From the NCBI GenBank assembly GCA_038065615.1, contig JBBTQQ010000007.1, positions 12,473-76,472 of the forward strand: a DNA stretch of 64,000 bases. Reading direction: 5' to 3'. The notes below the pieces were generated by a model, which was not told where the DNA came from, did not search any database, and saw nothing but the letters and a program-made list of their open reading frames with translations. The stretch is from Patescibacteria group bacterium. GTDB lineage: Bacteria; Patescibacteriota; Doudnabacteria; UBA920; VMFF01. The position numbers were made by a program, and so were the translations under genes. This document shows positions 1,262 through 31,694 of the stretch, one piece after another (the stretch's first letter is position 1; every line of letters starts with the position of its first letter).

Positions 1262-2623
1262 CTACATGTACAACTTATTCACAATTAAATCTATCTCTTG
1301 CTTTAATGATTCTTTTTCGCTCATCAATTTAGAAATTTTATCTACCGCGTGCATAACCGTTGTGTGGTCTCTCCCGCCGAAGTGATCACCAATACTTGGG
1401 AATGAATTTTCTAGTTGTTTGCGCATTAAAAACATTGCTATTTGTCTTGGTTTAACGAATTCTTTTCTTCTGGACTGTTTTAAAAGATCCTCTGTTGTGA
1501 TGTTGTAGAAATCAGAAACAACCTCCATTAGTTTTTTAACAGAAACAACTCTTTTCTTTGCTGAAGCAACACCAACTAAAACGCTTTTAACCTGCTCTAG
1601 TGTTGGTTTAGTGTTGTTTAGCTGACAGTAGACCATTAAACGGTTTAGAGCGCCCTCCAACTCTCTTATGTTGCTCTGGATGGTTTCTGCTATGTGGGTT
1701 AGAACCTCCGTGCTTACTTCATAGTGTTTTTCCCCGGCTTTTGAGCGTAAAATGGCTAGTCTGGTCTCAAAATCAGGGGCTTGGATATCAGCAATCATTC
1801 CCCATTCAAACCGAGAAACAAGCCTTTCTTCAATTGCTGGAATATCTTTTGGTAATCGGTCTGATGAAAGGATTATTTGCTTGTTATTTTGATGTAAGGT
1901 GTTAAAAGTATGGAAGAATTCTTCTTGAGTTTGTTCTTTTCCTGCTAGAAACTGGATGTCGTCAATCATTAACAGATCTACATTACGATACAGTTCTTTG
2001 AATTGAGCAACTTTCCCCAAACTTATTGCTTGGACAAATTCGTTTGTAAATTTTTCGCTTGTAACATACAAAACTTTTGCTTGTGGGTTGGTTTTTAAGA
2101 CCTCGTGTCCTACTGCTTGCATTAAGTGAGTCTTTCCAAGCCCTACTCCACCGTACAAAAAAAGAGGGTTGTAAACTTGCCCTGGATTTTTAGCAATCGC
2201 AGCACATGCCGCATGTGCAAGTTCATTCCCTTTTCCTGTGATGAAGGTTTCAAAAGCGTATTTTGGATTTAAACCATGGGTATTTTGTGTATTTGTTGGT
2301 CTTTGAGTTGTTTGCGCTTGTGTTGCTGAGACTGTTCTCTGGTTTGTTTCAGTAGTTGTCTTTGGAGAAGGTGTGTTTCCGCCAAGAACTTGGTATCTCA
2401 CTTCCTTTATTTCAGGAGCAATCATTTTTAGTGCTTTGGCGATCTCAATGTTGTACTTGTTTTGCAACCATTCTTTGGTAAATCCATTAGGTACGCTGAC
2501 TATTATATGGTCATCGTTTTTTTCTAGAATAGCTGTATTTTTAAACCAAGTTGTAAAATTGGCTTTGCTTAATGATACTTCGAGGTTACCTAAAATAGCC
2601 TGCCAAAGTTGTTGGTTGGTCAT
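1262..2623 (-). CDS. dnaA: Chromosomal replication initiator DnaA
   Basis: 453 aa with an AAA+ Walker A (GGVGLGKTHL) and a C-terminal DnaA box-binding domain. It has the conserved dnaA-dnaN synteny. Confidence 0.95.
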   Translation of the reverse strand: MTNQQLWQAILGNLEVSLSKANFTTWFKNTAILEKNDDHIIVSVPNGFTKEWLQNKYNIEIAKALKMIAPEIKEVRYQVLGGNTPSPKTTTETNQRTVSATQAQTTQRPTNTQNTHGLNPKYAFETFITGKGNELAHAACAAIAKNPGQVYNPLFLYGGVGLGKTHLMQAVGHEVLKTNPQAKVLYVTSEKFTNEFVQAISLGKVAQFKELYRNVDLLMIDDIQFLAGKEQTQEEFFHTFNTLHQNNKQIILSSDRLPKDIPAIEERLVSRFEWGMIADIQAPDFETRLAILRSKAGEKHYEVSTEVLTHIAETIQSNIRELEGALNRLMVYCQLNNTKPTLEQVKSVLVGVASAKKRVVSVKKLMEVVSDFYNITTEDLLKQSRRKEFVKPRQIAMFLMRKQLENSFPSIGDHFGGRDHTTVMHAVDKISKLMSEKESLKQEIDLIVNKLYM

Positions 2624-2801
2624 AGAAGAGAGGTCTCCAAATTCACACGTTTTATTTCAATACCAGCATTCTAACAAGTAGTTATCAACATGTAAAATAT
2701 TTGGAAACTCTTTAAAATATGGAGAAAAATAACGGGATTGTTAATATCATGTGTATATCCTGATGATATTTATTCGAAGCATTTTTAGTGTTAAGAGGAC
2801 T

Positions 2802-2829
2802 TGAAAAAAAGCTGAATTAAAAGTATAAT
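2802..2829 (+). promoter_or_regulatory. sigma70-like promoter (TTGAAA, 16-nt spacer, TATAAT) upstream of rpmH-rnpA
   Basis: TTGAAA at about 2802-2807 and TATAAT at about 2824-2829, roughly 30 nt upstream of the rpmH ATG. Confidence 0.5.
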
Positions 2830-2857
2830 ACAGAGGTCAATATTAATCTTTTTAAAG

Positions 2858-2992
2858 ATGAAACGAACTTATCAGCCAAAGAAAATCAAGAGAAAGCGCA
2901 AACACGGTTTTAGAAAGCGTATGCGCACCACTAAGGGTAGAAATGTTTTGGCAAGACGACGTGCGAAAAAGAGAAAAAAGCTTACAGTTTAA
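2858..2992 (+). CDS. rpmH: 50S ribosomal protein L34
   Basis: Translation [44 protein letters not shown] is canonical L34. It was missed by the ORF track because of its size. Confidence 0.95.
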
Positions 2993-3009
2993 CGCTCTCA
3001 ACAATTTGC

Positions 3010-3345
3010 ATGCTTAAGAAAGCAAACAGGATAAACAAAACCAGGGAATTACAAAAGGTGTACCGCACAGGATTAACCATGCATACATCCGCCCTGGTTA
3101 TTAAATTTGTTGCCTCCCCTAAAACTAGGACTGCTTTTGTTGTGTCCAAGAAAATTTCTAAGCTTTCTGTTGAAAGAAATAGAGTTAAAAGGGTTTTGAG
3201 AGAACAGATGAGACTAGCATTACCAAATTTAGTTACCGGTGATTATATGTTGGTTGCTAAACCAAAAGCAGCAAGCTACGAGAATAAAGAACTTGTTGAA
3301 CAATTAAAGTATACTTTGACAAGAAGCAAGGTTTTAAAGACATAG
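3010..3345 (+). CDS. rnpA: RNase P protein component
   Basis: 111 aa basic protein following rpmH, with RnpA-like sequence (VVSKKISKLSVERNRVKRVLRE). Confidence 0.85.
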   Translation: MLKKANRINKTRELQKVYRTGLTMHTSALVIKFVASPKTRTAFVVSKKISKLSVERNRVKRVLREQMRLALPNLVTGDYMLVAKPKAASYENKELVEQLKYTLTRSKVLKT

Positions 3346-28590: not shown

Positions 28591-29029
28591 CTGTCTAACT
28601 TCTAAGTTCATTCCTTTTAACACAGACGCAAAAATCTCAGCAGTAAGTCCTGAGATTTTTATGGCATCATGTATTTCAATTTCTCTTTTTTTGTAAAGTT
28701 TAACAGCCAAGCGAGTGCGCTCAGATGTTGTCATCTGATTTAATATTTCTTCACTGTATGCTTCTGTTCCTGTATTGTTTCCACCATTGTTTGGATCTAA
28801 GTGTGGTGGAAATGGAGGAGTAAATTCCATGTAAGTTGTTTTAAAAGGTTTACATCGTAGATTACCAGAATACACCTTGTTTGTCAAAGGCAGAGCCTAC
28901 TAAAGAGATAAGGAGTCACGGAGAGTAGCTTCTGCATTAGTGTCCTTTTAGATCACTGGAAATTTTTTCATAGATGTAATATAATTAGCGAGATTTAAAG
29001 ATTCGTATCTTTTCTTTTTAATTACCCGC

Positions 29030-29116
29030 GCCCGGGTGGCGAAACTGGCAGACGCACTACCTTGAGGTGGTAGCGGGAGCAATCCCATGGGAGTTCGAAT
29101 CTCCCCTCGGGCACCA
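29030..29116 (+). tRNA. tRNA-Leu (anticodon GAG)
   Basis: GCCCGGG acceptor, anticodon loop TTGAGGT, long variable arm. CCA is encoded. Confidence 0.75.
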
Positions 29117-29133
29117 ATGGTTTTTAAAGCACG

Positions 29134-29210
<77 letters not shown>

Positions 29211-29215
29211 AAATA

Positions 29216-29508
29216 TGCCTCGGTAGCTCAGTGGTAGAGCGCAGCCCTAAAAATCTTTGGGGCCATGAGTAGTAATATTCATTGAGAAAAATTGGGTGAA
29301 TTCGGGGAAAACCGTTTATTAAGTTAAGCGACAATCCCGAGCCAAGCCAAGAAGGGTTTAAGTTTCTTGGAAGGTGTAGAGACTAGCAAGTGAGTCCCAA
29401 CAATAATCTTGCACTAGCGCCCAACTCCTCTTTTAGAGGATGATGAGATAGTCCAAATAGCCTTGGAAGAGGCTGGCGTCGTCAGTTCGATTCTGACCCG
29501 AGGCACCA
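29216..29508 (+). tRNA. tRNA-Phe (anticodon GAA) interrupted by a group I intron in the anticodon loop
   Basis: The 5' exon GCCTCGG/TA/GCTCAGTGGTAGAGC/G/CAGCC/CU ends at 29247. The 3' exon GAAGA/GGCTG/GCGTC/GTCAG-TTCGATT-CTGAC/CCGAGGC/A/CCA starts at 29466. Together they fold into a canonical cloverleaf. The Phe assignment depends on splice-site placement. Confidence 0.7.
29248..29465 (+). ncRNA. Group I self-splicing intron (~218 nt) in the tRNA anticodon loop
   Basis: P1 is exon ..GCCCU paired with intron GGGGC (U.G at the splice site). P10 is intron UCUUU paired with 3' exon GAAGA. The intron ends in G. Core segments CAATCCCGAGCCAAGCCAAG and GGAAGGTGTAGAGACTAGC resemble the cyanobacterial tRNA-Leu group I intron core, as recalled from memory. 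Confidence 0.7.
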
Positions 29509-29557
29509 TAAATAACTTGTTCTTTTAAAACTGAACGGTCCGTGCTATGCTTATAGC

Positions 29558-30253
29558 ATGAGAAAAGAAAAAGAGAAGGCTTTTAAATTGCGATTGGCTG
29601 GTAACAGCTACGCAGAAATAACGAAAAAGTTAAATGTGCCAAAAAGTACACTATCTTTTTGGTTCTCTGAAATGCCATTGTCTGAAAAAGCCAGGAAGCG
29701 AATAAGTTTAAGAGTGCAAGCAGGTTCTTTTAAGGGTTTGCTGAAAAGAAACCAATTACAAACACATTTAGCGAGACAGAGGGCAAAGGAAACAAGATCA
29801 GTTTCAAAATTGGATGTTGGAACATTAAGTAAACGAGAGCTTTTTATCTTGGGGGTGGGTTTGTATTGGGCCGAGGGCTACAAACGTCAAATATACAAAG
29901 ATGGTAAGGCAAAAACCTACCACCCTGTAAGTTTAAGTAATTCTGATCCAAACCTTGTTAAAATCTTTTTAAGATTTTTGCGAGAAGTATGTGGTGCATC
30001 TTCAGAGAAGATAACAGCACATTTAAGGATATATGAACATCAGAATGAGAAGGAGCTCTTAAAATTCTGGAGCCAGGTGACTAAAATTGCGCCAAGCAGG
30101 TTTTCTAAATTTTATTATGGCGTTAGCAAATCAAGTCAACACAAAAGACCTTTTAATATCTTGCCGTACGGAACAATTCAGATTAGAATAAATGATACTA
30201 AACTTTACCATCAAATTATGGGATGGATTGAAGGTTTAGAAGAGCAAAAATAA
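29558..30253 (+). CDS. HTH + single-motif LAGLIDADG-like putative homing endonuclease
   Basis: N-terminal HTH (NSYAEITKKLNVPKSTLSFW). A LAGLIDADG-like motif (FILGVGLYWAEGYK, compare GLWIGDG of PI-SceI) lies ~100 aa in. It starts 50 nt after the intron-containing tRNA. Confidence 0.5.
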   Translation: MRKEKEKAFKLRLAGNSYAEITKKLNVPKSTLSFWFSEMPLSEKARKRISLRVQAGSFKGLLKRNQLQTHLARQRAKETRSVSKLDVGTLSKRELFILGVGLYWAEGYKRQIYKDGKAKTYHPVSLSNSDPNLVKIFLRFLREVCGASSEKITAHLRIYEHQNEKELLKFWSQVTKIAPSRFSKFYYGVSKSSQHKRPFNILPYGTIQIRINDTKLYHQIMGWIEGLEEQK

Positions 30254-30258
30254 TTTAA

Positions 30259-30332
30259 GCGGCTATGGTTCAATGGTAGAACTCTTCCTTGCCAAGGAAG
30301 TGACACGGGTTCGATTCCCGTTAGCCGCTCCA
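30259..30332 (+). tRNA. tRNA-Gly (anticodon GCC)
   Basis: GCGGCTA/TG/GTTC..; anticodon loop TTGCCAA; ends TCCA. Confidence 0.75.
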
Positions 30333-30368
30333 AAAAAGAACCCCACTTTTTAGTGGGGTTCTTTTTAT
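30333..30368. terminator. Bidirectional terminator
   Basis: AAAAAAGAACCCCACTTTTTAGTGGGGTTCTTTTTATTT. Confidence 0.7.
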
Positions 30369-31330
30369 TTCTCGTCTATTCTCCAGCTTCCGTCTTGTTG
30401 TTTTATTATCTTTCCTGGTATTTCAAAACCTGATGCTAGTTTGTGTCCCCCGCCTCCGAAAAGATTTGCAAGGAAAGAAACATCCATGTTTTTGTTTTCT
30501 TCGCTTCTTAAGCTTCCTTTTACTTGGTTGTCGTCTTGTCTAAGGAAGAGCGCGAATTTAATTCCCGGTATTTTGTTTAGTGTTTCAACGAATCCTTCAA
30601 AAGTATCATTTGATACTTCTCCAAGTTGATCTAAGTCTTCTTGTGTTACAACGCTTATCGCAACCTTGTCATCATTTAGTAGTCTTGTGTTTTCAATTGC
30701 TTTAGCCCAGGCTTTTAGAGAGTTTAAGTCTTTGCTTTGATATGTTGATTCATATATTTTGTCGATTCTTGCTCCATATTTCATTAACTCACCAGCAGCA
30801 ATCAAGGTTGAAGGCTGAGTGTTTGAATGCATGAAAGAACCTGTGTCTGTAAACATTCCGGTTAAAAGACATTTTGCAATATCACTGTTGAATTTGATGT
30901 CTAGGTATTTGAAAAAGTCATAAACTAATTCTGCGACTGAAGATTTTTGCGCGTCTACTAAATTAACTGTTCCATACATTTGATTGTCTGGGTGGTGATC
31001 AATGTTTAGTATTGGTAGGGTTGAGTTAATTATGGCATCGAAGCCAGCTCTTGTTTTTTTACCACATCCGAAAAGGATTATTCCGTCATAGAATTCGTTT
31101 GTTACTGGATTTGGGAGTTCTGAAAGGATTAAGTTTTGTCTTGGAAGAAATTGAAGTCCTGAAGGAACTCCGCCATCTGCAACTAGTGTTGCTTGTTTGT
31201 TCATTGATTCTAAGACAACAGACATTGCAAGCATTGAACCTCCGTCATCTCCGTCTGTTCTTGCGTGAGATGCCATTAGGAAACGATTTTTGTCTGTTAT
31301 GAATTTTTTTGCTTGTTCAAAGTTATTCAT
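30365..31330 (-). CDS. nrnA: DHH/DHHA1 phosphoesterase NrnA-like (oligoribonuclease/pAp phosphatase)
   Basis: DHH motif region (ASHARTDGDDGGS) and DHHA1 GGGGH motif. The track ORF extends to 31387; the internal Met (MNNFEQAKKF) is the likelier start. Confidence 0.75.
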   Translation of the reverse strand: MNNFEQAKKFITDKNRFLMASHARTDGDDGGSMLAMSVVLESMNKQATLVADGGVPSGLQFLPRQNLILSELPNPVTNEFYDGIILFGCGKKTRAGFDAIINSTLPILNIDHHPDNQMYGTVNLVDAQKSSVAELVYDFFKYLDIKFNSDIAKCLLTGMFTDTGSFMHSNTQPSTLIAAGELMKYGARIDKIYESTYQSKDLNSLKAWAKAIENTRLLNDDKVAISVVTQEDLDQLGEVSNDTFEGFVETLNKIPGIKFALFLRQDDNQVKGSLRSEENKNMDVSFLANLFGGGGHKLASGFEIPGKIIKQQDGSWRIDEK

Positions 31331-31694
31331 TGGTTTCTTCTCTTTCTTTTTCAATCTCGTGGAAGATGTTGCTGATGTGTTCTGCATATCTTGCGCTTGT
31401 GTCTAGATGAAATGATATTCTAGGGACAATCTTAGTTTCAACGTGTCTGTTTAGTTCACCTTGTATATCGTAAAGATTTTTCTTTAGTAGTTCTAATATA
31501 TGTTTATCGTTTCCATTTATTATTGTGATCCATATTTTTGCCCAGCGCATATCTCTGGAAGTCTGAACTTTTGATATTGTGACTATGCTTTTGCTGTTTT
31601 TAAAGTAAGGTAAAAGTATTACTCCTAATAATCTTTGGATTAAGGAGTTTATCTTTTCTATACGGTTAGTCTTTTTTTTGGGTGGGAATTGCAT
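31323..31694 (-). CDS. rbfA: Ribosome-binding factor A
   Basis: 123 aa in the conserved position downstream of infB, with RbfA-like KH-fold sequence. Confidence 0.75.
   Translation of the reverse strand: MQFPPKKKTNRIEKINSLIQRLLGVILLPYFKNSKSIVTISKVQTSRDMRWAKIWITIINGNDKHILELLKKNLYDIQGELNRHVETKIVPRISFHLDTSARYAEHISNIFHEIEKEREETNE

Follow-up and report, generated by a model that had tools for sequence, protein, structure and literature searches.

Collaborative homing, in which a free-standing endonuclease and an intron without an open reading frame (ORF) share one target, has been described in two phage systems (PMC3984707). The group I introns of Patescibacteria tRNA genes were surveyed in 95 complete genomes by Nakagawa et al. 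(mSystems 2026, PMC13011429), who list a single Phe(GAA) intron, 211 nt long and inserted at position 33/34, in GCA_016699995.1, of the class Doudnabacteria. Nuclease genes lay inside only 12 of the 333 tRNA introns in the survey, horizontal transfer was judged to be probably infrequent, and free-standing nuclease neighbors of tRNA introns are not mentioned (PMC13011429). Williams (bioRxiv 2020) widened the intron-bearing tRNA types to 21. The present analysis concerns a 64,000-nt stretch of contig JBBTQQ010000007.1 from a Patescibacteria assembly (GCA_038065615.1), hereafter called the window, in which a tRNA-Phe(GAA) gene is interrupted by a group I intron and is followed directly by an ORF that resembles homing endonucleases. 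We propose, with a probability of about 0.6, that the ORF encodes a homing nuclease acting together with the intron and that the two make up a two-part mobile unit that spreads by collaborative (trans) homing. Coordinates are those of the window unless a homologous locus, designated by an L number, is named. The split gene and its intron are composed as follows.

29217-29248, forward strand: tRNA-Phe exon 1, comprising the acceptor 5' strand, D arm, anticodon-stem 5' strand, C32, and U33; sequence GCCUCGG UA GCUC AGUGGUA GAGC G CAGCC CU, the last U being the U of the 5'-splice-site U.G pair
29249-29465, forward strand: group I intron (Rfam RF00028), 217 nt, ORF-less, between U33 and G34
29466-29508, forward strand: tRNA-Phe exon 2, comprising the anticodon G34 A35 A36, G37, A38, anticodon-stem 3' strand, variable loop, T arm, acceptor 3' strand, A73, and encoded CCA; sequence GAAGA GGCUG GCGUC GUCAG UUCGAUU CUGAC CCGAGGC A CCA, the first five bases forming P10 with 29254-29258
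29244-29251 with 29256-29263, forward strand: P1, exon GCCCU and intron AAA paired with UUUGGGGC; core pairing GCCCU:GGGGC, with U29248.G29259 at the 5' splice site
29254-29258, forward strand: P10 guide, intron UCUUU paired with exon GAAGA at 29466-29470
29266-29271 with 29276-29281, forward strand: P2, with a GUAA loop
29292-29298 with 29418-29424, forward strand: P3
29301-29307 with 29335-29341, forward strand: P4
29313-29316 with 29327-29330, forward strand: P5
29342-29343 with 29373-29374, forward strand: P6
29347-29353 with 29364-29370, forward strand: P6a
29381-29385 with 29449-29453, forward strand: P7, GACUA / UAGUC, read from the sequence and the alignment
29386-29390 with 29408-29412, forward strand: extra hairpin between P7 and P3' (27 nt, 29386-29412), from the sequence and the alignment
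29426-29430 with 29436-29440, forward strand: P8, from the sequence and the alignment
29459-29474, forward strand: hairpin spanning the 3' splice site; the intron tail AGCCU (29459-29463), a repeat of the anticodon-stem 5' strand, can pair with AGGCU of exon 2 (29470-29474), with the omega-G in the loop
29465, forward strand: omega-G, the last base of the intron

It is close to certain that the region holds a tRNA-Phe gene that is spliced and whose intron is of group I. Joining 29217-29248 to 29466-29508 gives a canonical 75-nt cloverleaf of tRNA-Phe(gaa) with A73 and an encoded CCA (ARAGORN, joined exons), and the covariance model RF00028 (Intron_gpI) matches 29239-29475 on the forward strand over its full length (1-253) with 78.2 bits against a gathering score of 50 (E = 3.6e-18), the sole group I match of an Rfam scan of the entire 64 kb. 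The interrupted tRNA-Phe(GAA) gene that an earlier note had proposed from the letters of the window is thereby upheld; its coordinates held for exon 2, whereas exon 1 occupies 29217-29248 instead of 29216-29247 and the intron is 217 rather than 218 nt long. Several junction registers yield a Phe anticodon because the intron begins with AAAAA and exon 2 with GAAGA, and only the 33/34 register combines a U before the 5' splice site, a terminal intron G, and a U.G pair in P1. The joined exons are identical to the uninterrupted tRNA-Phe genes of the syntenic relatives L205 and L206 at 75/75 positions and to that of L207 at 74/75; the ligated exons thus equal intronless orthologues, which, together with the U.G/omega-G rules and the covarying P1 and P10, fixes the splice junction and the insertion between U33 and G34 claimed by the earlier note. 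The site is real but is not new, since it is the classical tRNA-fMet intron site and is already listed for Phe(GAA) in the Doudnabacteria genome, and the intron of the window joins a kind on record for the phylum (PMC13011429).

In their default modes, ARAGORN and the Rfam tRNA model found 13 tRNA genes in the window and none at the split tRNA-Phe locus; default tRNA finders miss the split gene, and the genome therefore seems to be without tRNA-Phe. The intron mode of ARAGORN does return a split gene with a 217-nt intron but misplaces the junction by 4 nt in the 3' direction and reports AAA as the anticodon, a misreading that matters for annotation. No second tRNA-Phe gene is present within the 64-kb window, and the supplementary-table rows consulted in the survey give one tRNA-Phe gene per genome, including the genome with the Phe intron (PMC13011429). 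The split gene is probably the sole tRNA-Phe gene of its genome, and its precursor must self-splice if a working tRNA is to be made, as we infer that it does. In all tRNA-Phe genes of the loci that we compared, intron bearing and intronless alike, the anticodon loop reads CUGAAGA (CUGAAGC in a few), so that position 37 is G; bacterial tRNA-Phe usually has A at this position.

The intron belongs to a family with a well-preserved structure. A search that imposed splice rules and included metagenome loci collected 131 distinct introns of 195 to 433 nt, and all intron counts refer to loci passing the splice-site and stem-pairing rules. In 62/62 extracted intron-bearing genes adjoining the ORF (61 homologous loci and the window), the splice pattern is ...CU | ...G | GAAGAG, with GAAAAU in L073. 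For 60 homologous introns, RNAalifold predicted 43 pairs, 25 of them with compensatory changes, which cover P1 and its extension, P2, P3, P4, P5, and P6. The splice-site U.G of P1 is invariant in 60/60 aligned homologues, and the adjacent pair changes from C-G to G-C in 18. Exon and intron change in concert both in P1 (exon GCCCU with GGGGC, xGCCU with GGGCx, GGACU with GGUCC) and in P10 (exon GAAGAG with CUCUUC, and exon GAAAAU with AUUUUC in L073), and the P1 and P10 pairings and the terminal intron G read by the earlier note are thus present in the window and in its homologues. P7 is invariant and therefore uninformative on covariation either way; the complementarity of P8 is seen in every sequence, in columns aligned too poorly for a covariation count. 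Longer introns occur in L022 (roughly 450 to 480 nt, missed by ARAGORN), L051 (404 nt), and L031 (433 nt, or 414 in the ARAGORN register), the extra sequence lying after P7.

The extra hairpin between P7 and P3' stands at a position typical of subgroup IA. Nakagawa et al. classed nearly all Patescibacteria tRNA introns as IA (PMC13011429). Because of the hairpin and the published class, the likeness to the IC3 intron of cyanobacterial tRNA-Leu that the earlier note had seen is probably a likeness of no more than the generic group I core. No internal P9 hairpin is found in these introns, and the Rfam alignment puts the hairpin across the 3' splice site in its place as the terminal hairpin. In 55 of the 131 introns, against 9.9 expected from shuffles, four or more nucleotides of the anticodon-stem 5' strand recur in the intron tail (the last ~15 nt), which allows the tail to base-pair with exon 2 over the 3' splice site.

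The second component of the proposed unit lies outside the intron, as the earlier note had stated: the 217-nt intron is ORF-less, and the ORF starts 50 nt past the tRNA. Its parts and its upstream element are listed here.

29558-30253, forward strand: ORF for a putative homing endonuclease, 231 aa, intact and free-standing
29567-29662, forward strand: N-terminal helix-turn-helix (HTH), residues 4-35
Residues 43-86 of the ORF, forward strand: long helix
29825-30250, forward strand: C-terminal LAGLIDADG-like domain, residues ~90-231
29861-29884, forward strand: motif LYWAEGYK, residues 102-109, with the invariant E106
29536-29557, forward strand: conserved element upstream of the ORF, GAAC ... 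gTGcTATGCT tatagc ATG, recognized from the upstream regions of 80 homologous loci

Homologues of the ORF number 461 at E <= 0.001, all attached organism names being Patescibacteria or unclassified bacterium and one protein, from an NCBI metagenome-assembled genome labeled "Patescibacteria group bacterium," being 100% identical, and a scan of one genome per species gave 440 matching stretches. Among 44 family sequences with 55 to 69% identity, 38 columns are invariant, including E106 and G107, and most family ORFs in loci L001-L204 keep the LYWAEGYK motif. The N-terminal HTH that had been proposed is a homeodomain-like Pfam HTH_23 in 42/44 members (best E, 5.7e-07). Searches for LAGLIDADG families in Pfam (PF00961, PF03161, PF14528, and similar) gave none at E <= 1 for the ORF and none listed for 43 relatives; NCBIfam, PHROGs, and PDB sequence searches with the ORF found nothing relevant beyond the N-terminal HTH, and Foldseek of the ORF model against PDB gave no match. 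The AlphaFold models are confident (predicted local distance difference test [pLDDT] score of 88 at full length; pLDDT of 89 and predicted template modeling score of 0.84 for residues 88-231), and the best structural matches of the C-terminal domain are LAGLIDADG proteins: I-DmoI, the endonuclease domain of the Tli intein, and WhiA (6.9 / 6.3 each), followed by E-DreI (6.7 / 6.2), I-Tsp061I (6.4 / 6.1), and I-CeuI (5.9 / 5.0). In hhalign, residues 92-144 fall on residues 103-145 of I-DmoI, the sequence of which was checked against PDB 2vs8, and LYWAEGYK is placed over LYVAEGDK (E = 0.081). The LAGLIDADG-like character given to the ORF by the earlier note is thus retained, and an architecture of an HTH followed by a single LAGLIDADG-like domain is supported by the predicted fold and the motif and not by any sequence family. 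The glutamate of I-DmoI that matches E106 is catalytic, and E106 may accordingly serve in catalytic metal binding.

Upstream of the ORF, the family pattern is GAAC, gTGcTATACT, 3 to 8 nt, and ATG, and TGnTAYRMT occurs no more than 45 nt from the start in 41/80 loci; the element suggests an extended -10-like promoter of the ORF's own and a leaderless or near-leaderless mRNA. Operator-like TTGAAC...GTTCAA inverted repeats bracket this element in L013, L039, L073, and L079. In 16/78 loci, the 130 nt upstream of the ORF contain a DnaA-box-like motif, TATCCACA or TATCAACA, against ~0.35 expected from the density of these motifs elsewhere in the same loci, and the motifs stand 35 to 60 nt upstream in, for example, L005, L007, L009-L012, L022, L024, L053, L068, L069, and L072; the window has none because tRNA-Phe lies directly upstream of its ORF.

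The linkage between intron and ORF is tight and recurrent, whichever of the two is used to select the loci. In a sample of 80 loci selected for the ORF (45 to 65% identity), an intron-bearing tRNA-Phe adjoins the ORF in 63, comprising 61 found by ARAGORN together with L022 (long intron) and L079 (BLAST); 12 of the 80 ORFs stand beside an intronless tRNA-Phe, and 5 are cut off by contig ends. In 15 loci, the arrangement is that of the window, with the tRNA followed by the ORF on one strand; 14 loci are divergent, and in 34 the ORF precedes the tRNA, with spacers of 2 to 59 nt. The flanking tRNAs likewise vary (Val...Gly, Ala...Pro, Arg/Pro, His). A junction-pattern scan of metagenomes gave a second sample, selected for the intron, of 33 distinct loci, each flanked on either side by 950 nt or more. 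In 19 of these the neighbor is an ORF of the present family, including a divergent branch of ~30% identity that retains LYWGEG; in 7 it is an unrelated HNH-type ORF; and 7 have neither, so that a nuclease-like ORF adjoins the intron in 26/33 loci. The HNH-type ORFs carry CxxC...FQFHH...N...CANCH (CxxC...HH...N...CxxCH) and are about 124 aa long except in L094, where the length is 156 aa; this longer form passes the Pfam thresholds for HNH_3 and HNH, and the 124-aa form falls below them (E = 0.099). They were found beside intron-bearing tRNA-Phe genes that lack the HTH/LAGLIDADG-like ORF, at the following positions.

L110, 2095-2475: HNH-type ORF
L127, 5455-5850: HNH-type ORF
L128, 1685-2068: HNH-type ORF
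L155, 3309-3704: HNH-type ORF
L176, 1091-1570: HNH-type ORF
L189, 2119-2505: HNH-type ORF
L094, 3382-3858: HNH-type ORF

If homing endonucleases turn over, unrelated nuclease-type genes are expected at the same place, as the two here are, and their presence is hard to square with a maturase or a regulator.

Syntenic relatives were recognized by NrnA homologues 66 to 87% identical to that of the window and by the contig order IF2, RbfA, NrnA, tRNA cluster, and RfbB-like gene. In six of them (L205, L206, L207, L211, L212, and L213), tRNA-Phe is uninterrupted, there is no ORF, the cluster comprises Gly, Phe, and Val, with Leu in five (the contig of L212 ends before tRNA-Leu), and the Phe-Gly spacer is 8 to 17 nt. 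Aligned with L205-L207, the stretch 28888-30364 of the window shows exactly two insertions, one of 217 nt in the anticodon loop and another of about 740 nt between Phe and Gly.

29514-30256, forward strand: second insertion relative to the six syntenic relatives, containing the ORF and its own upstream signals; boundaries approximate to a few nucleotides

Intron and ORF are thus jointly absent from 6/6 syntenic relatives, which fits one joint event; a gain in the lineage of the window explains this most simply, and loss is possible. Two further relatives are uninformative for Phe: L210 ends before tRNA-Phe, and L209 (NrnA 98% identical) diverges 9 nt into tRNA-Gly. The 2-kb contig of L209 (1655-2001) is 97% identical across RbfA and NrnA and continues as unrelated DNA from 9 nt into the 3' end of tRNA-Gly, where either the assembly is broken or the tRNA cluster has undergone a strain-level rearrangement. 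With the wider samples included, all four states of a homing cycle are represented: empty (6 relatives), intron and nuclease, intron only (7/33), and nuclease only (12/80).

We suggest that the unit works as follows. In the transcript, the exon sequence GCCCU would pair with GGGGC of the intron to form P1, with the U.G at the 5' splice site; UCUUU of the intron would next pair with GAAGA to form P10 and align the 3' exon, with omega-G29465 ending the intron. The nuclease, probably a dimer with HTH domains that extend the contact with DNA, would cut uninterrupted tRNA-Phe genes in or near the anticodon region, and repair templated by the donor would transfer a single tract of about 1 kb that spans the intron, the 43-nt exon 2, and the ORF. 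In the donor allele, the intron would split the nuclease target, and its removal from the RNA would allow the essential tRNA to be made. That the ORF product is an active nuclease, where it would cut, and that an allele with the intron would be immune are features that we infer. As a tentative and rather unlikely extension, the pair may be addiction-like, an active nuclease cutting cells that lose the intron at the restored target in an essential single-copy gene and so enforcing retention of the intron. If true, this would account for the persistence of group I introns in bacteria with the most reduced genomes, and loci with an empty site, with both components, with the intron only, or with the nuclease only, together with two alternative nuclease families, would make up a natural, phylum-wide series of all the stages that lead from a free-standing nuclease to a mobile intron.

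Among the alternatives, an unlikely though serious one is that the ORF is a homing endonuclease that homes independently next to tRNA-Phe ("intronless homing"), with a target elsewhere within or beside the gene and not at the insertion site, and that an older resident intron has been dragged along by co-conversion, as is reported for phage T4 MobE and the nrdB intron (PMC2790892). The ORF with its motif intact stands beside an intronless tRNA-Phe in 12/80 loci, as this explanation would have it, and lies only about 10 to 220 nt from tRNA-Phe, so that any cut in the gene would co-convert the intron. Set against this are the appearance of intron and ORF together relative to six relatives without both, which fits one joint event, and the presence of two unrelated nuclease families on the same intron-bearing gene, which is expected if the interrupted site confers immunity on the donor. 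It is distinctly less probable that the ORF is a domesticated, noncutting LAGLIDADG/HTH DNA-binding protein of the WhiA kind, such as a regulator of the tRNA cluster, its linkage to tRNA-Phe reflecting function or old synteny. The family is unusually conserved for a selfish nuclease, with its 38 invariant columns, persists beside intronless tRNA-Phe genes, and has conserved upstream motifs that include inverted GAAC/GTTC repeats in some loci and the DnaA-box-like TATC[CA]ACA. WhiA has lost the LAGLIDADG acidic residues, whereas the acidic E106 at the end of the LAGLIDADG-like helix is invariant here and lies within an I-DmoI-like LYxAEG motif. Moreover, the distribution of the ORF, absent from six close relatives and present in only 440 species genomes, is patchy for a regulator, an HNH-type ORF takes its place in other genomes, and it changes side and strand relative to tRNA-Phe.

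Some LAGLIDADG proteins are group I intron maturases, and the tight linkage to the intron, as well as the lack of an internal P9 hairpin, which might leave the intron in need of help, would be in keeping with an ORF product that serves as a protein cofactor for the folding and splicing of the tRNA-Phe intron. We nevertheless consider this highly improbable: copies of the ORF whose motifs are intact stand beside tRNA-Phe genes that have no intron, the ORF is missing from ~40% of the loci selected for the intron (half of these having the HNH-type ORF), its N-terminal domain is a DNA-type HTH, and related Patescibacteria introns, from genes for tRNA-Asn as well as tRNA-Asp, self-splice in vitro without protein (PMC13011429). 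A reading of the locus as a dead tRNA pseudogene that contains the decaying remnant of an intron has next to no probability, even though default tRNA finders make no call, because functional orthologues have the same exon sequences, no core helix is disrupted and compensatory changes run through the family, and the window holds no other tRNA-Phe, the Patescibacteria genomes in the table rows consulted likewise having a single one.

Several observations nonetheless weigh against the collaborative homing that we favor. The fold match is modest, and WhiA, a nonnuclease regulator, scores equal to I-DmoI. About a fifth of the introns (7/33) have no neighboring nuclease gene. The ORFs of the 12 loci with intronless tRNA-Phe keep LYWAEGYK, and four of these loci share the CCCUGAAGAGG core of the presumed target. 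Self-protection thus does not depend on the intron in every case, unless recognition reaches into variable positions or these nucleases have no activity. On the supporting side, exon similarity between loci is greater for tRNA-Phe than for tRNA-Gly (0.84 versus 0.75; 244 pairs against 45) or tRNA-Val (0.83 versus 0.77), which fits co-conversion but could also stem from tighter constraint on tRNA-Phe.

All 12 nuclease-only loci have a noncanonical tRNA-Phe D arm. Protection of these loci by the change in the tRNA was considered, but L211 has the same D-arm variant without any ORF, and four of the loci keep CCCUGAAGAGG. In L077, an unusual tRNA-Phe variant (D loop CAUCGGUA) stands beside the ORF in a fourth, convergent arrangement, and the same variant is present in the syntenic L211, which has no ORF. 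In L035, two members of the ORF family (1711-2346 and 2501-3181, 34% and 56% identical to that of the window) flank one intronless tRNA-Phe with the D arm GCUCAGUGGCAGCAGC, which looks like two separate invasions of one gene. A scan of viral contigs with the exon-intron junction pattern gave five matches (L081-L085), all false, and by this search there is no sign of the element in phage contigs; the matches are phage tRNA genes with the anticodon loop CUGUUAA (tRNA-Asn type), in which the arm AAGCU GUUAA CUUCGGGG fits the pattern by chance. Some metagenome matches unconfirmed by ARAGORN may be the same chance artifact.

The remaining features of the tRNA cluster in the window are these.

28957-28985, forward strand: promoter-like site TGGAAA-17-TATAAT, a pattern match from a consensus scan, upstream of Leu-Val-Phe-ORF-Gly
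29030-29116, forward strand: tRNA-Leu(GAG) (ARAGORN, Rfam), near-identical in syntenic relatives
29135-29211, forward strand: tRNA-Val(UAC) (ARAGORN, Rfam), near-identical in syntenic relatives
30259-30332, forward strand: tRNA-Gly(GCC) (ARAGORN, Rfam)
30333-30366, forward strand: terminator-like hairpin that closes the cluster and also lies just 3' of the convergent NrnA-like gene
30368-31387, reverse strand: NrnA-like gene adjoining the tRNA cluster

From the promoter-like site, which lies in a stretch conserved in the alignment with L205 and partly with L206 and L207, through Leu, Val, Phe with its intron, the ORF, and Gly to the terminator-like hairpin, the cluster has the look of a single transcription unit. 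The proteins closest to NrnA are those of Doudnabacteria.

The recurrent pairing of the intron with a free-standing nuclease-like gene appears to be new and is not mentioned in the literature consulted. The survey of tRNA introns in the phylum judged them to be largely immobile since nuclease genes are seldom inside them (PMC13011429); our data suggest that the nuclease gene is instead a direct neighbor in the majority of cases among the sampled tRNA-Phe introns, with at least two nuclease families involved, which changes the published view of mobility. If the pairing is confirmed as homing, hundreds of natural variants would be at hand for studying how free-standing nucleases and introns become composite mobile introns, and the uncharacterized nuclease family, as a possible tool, would recognize its putative target, the highly conserved anticodon region of tRNA-Phe.

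The intron of GCA_016699995.1 shares with that of the window its tRNA, anticodon, insertion site, similar length, and, judging by NrnA, bacterial class; the survey lists one case, whereas at least 131 distinct introns of the family are described here, most of them with an adjacent free-standing nuclease-like gene (PMC13011429). Cyanobacterial tRNA introns hold a PD-(D/E)XK nuclease in the tRNA-fMet 33/34 intron, at the same position as here, and a LAGLIDADG type in the tRNA-Arg(CCU) intron (PMC13011429), but the genes are inside the introns there and outside an ORF-less intron here. The ORF has in common with the archaeal and organellar LAGLIDADG enzymes of rRNA introns (I-DmoI, I-Tsp061I, I-Vdi141I, and I-CeuI) an alpha-beta-beta-alpha-type core and the LYxAEG(D/Y)K of the second domain of I-DmoI; it differs from them in having one domain instead of two, and would therefore have to act as a dimer, as I-CeuI does, in its additional N-terminal HTH and long helix, in not being intron encoded, and in matching no Pfam LAGLIDADG family. 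Phage T4 SegB is a free-standing GIY-YIG endonuclease within the T4 tRNA gene cluster and resembles the present ORF as a homing nuclease gene placed among tRNA genes and thought to act on the tRNA region, but it belongs to another nuclease family, has no intron partner, and resides in a phage. Closest are the two phage systems for collaborative homing, which we take to be F-CphI with the psbA intron of cyanophage S-PM2 and the system of Aeromonas phage Aeh1: in them, as at this locus, an intron of the self-splicing type has no ORF, the interrupted gene is accompanied by a nuclease gene of its own, and the two components occur or are missing together. The phage nucleases have been demonstrated to cut at the insertion site, whereas here such a cut is a prediction, and the present unit lies in a cellular chromosome, would act on a tRNA gene that is probably the sole one for Phe, involves nucleases of the HTH plus LAGLIDADG-like or the HNH type, and extends over hundreds of species. 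If confirmed, it would to our knowledge be the first case of collaborative homing in a cellular chromosome and the first to involve a tRNA gene.

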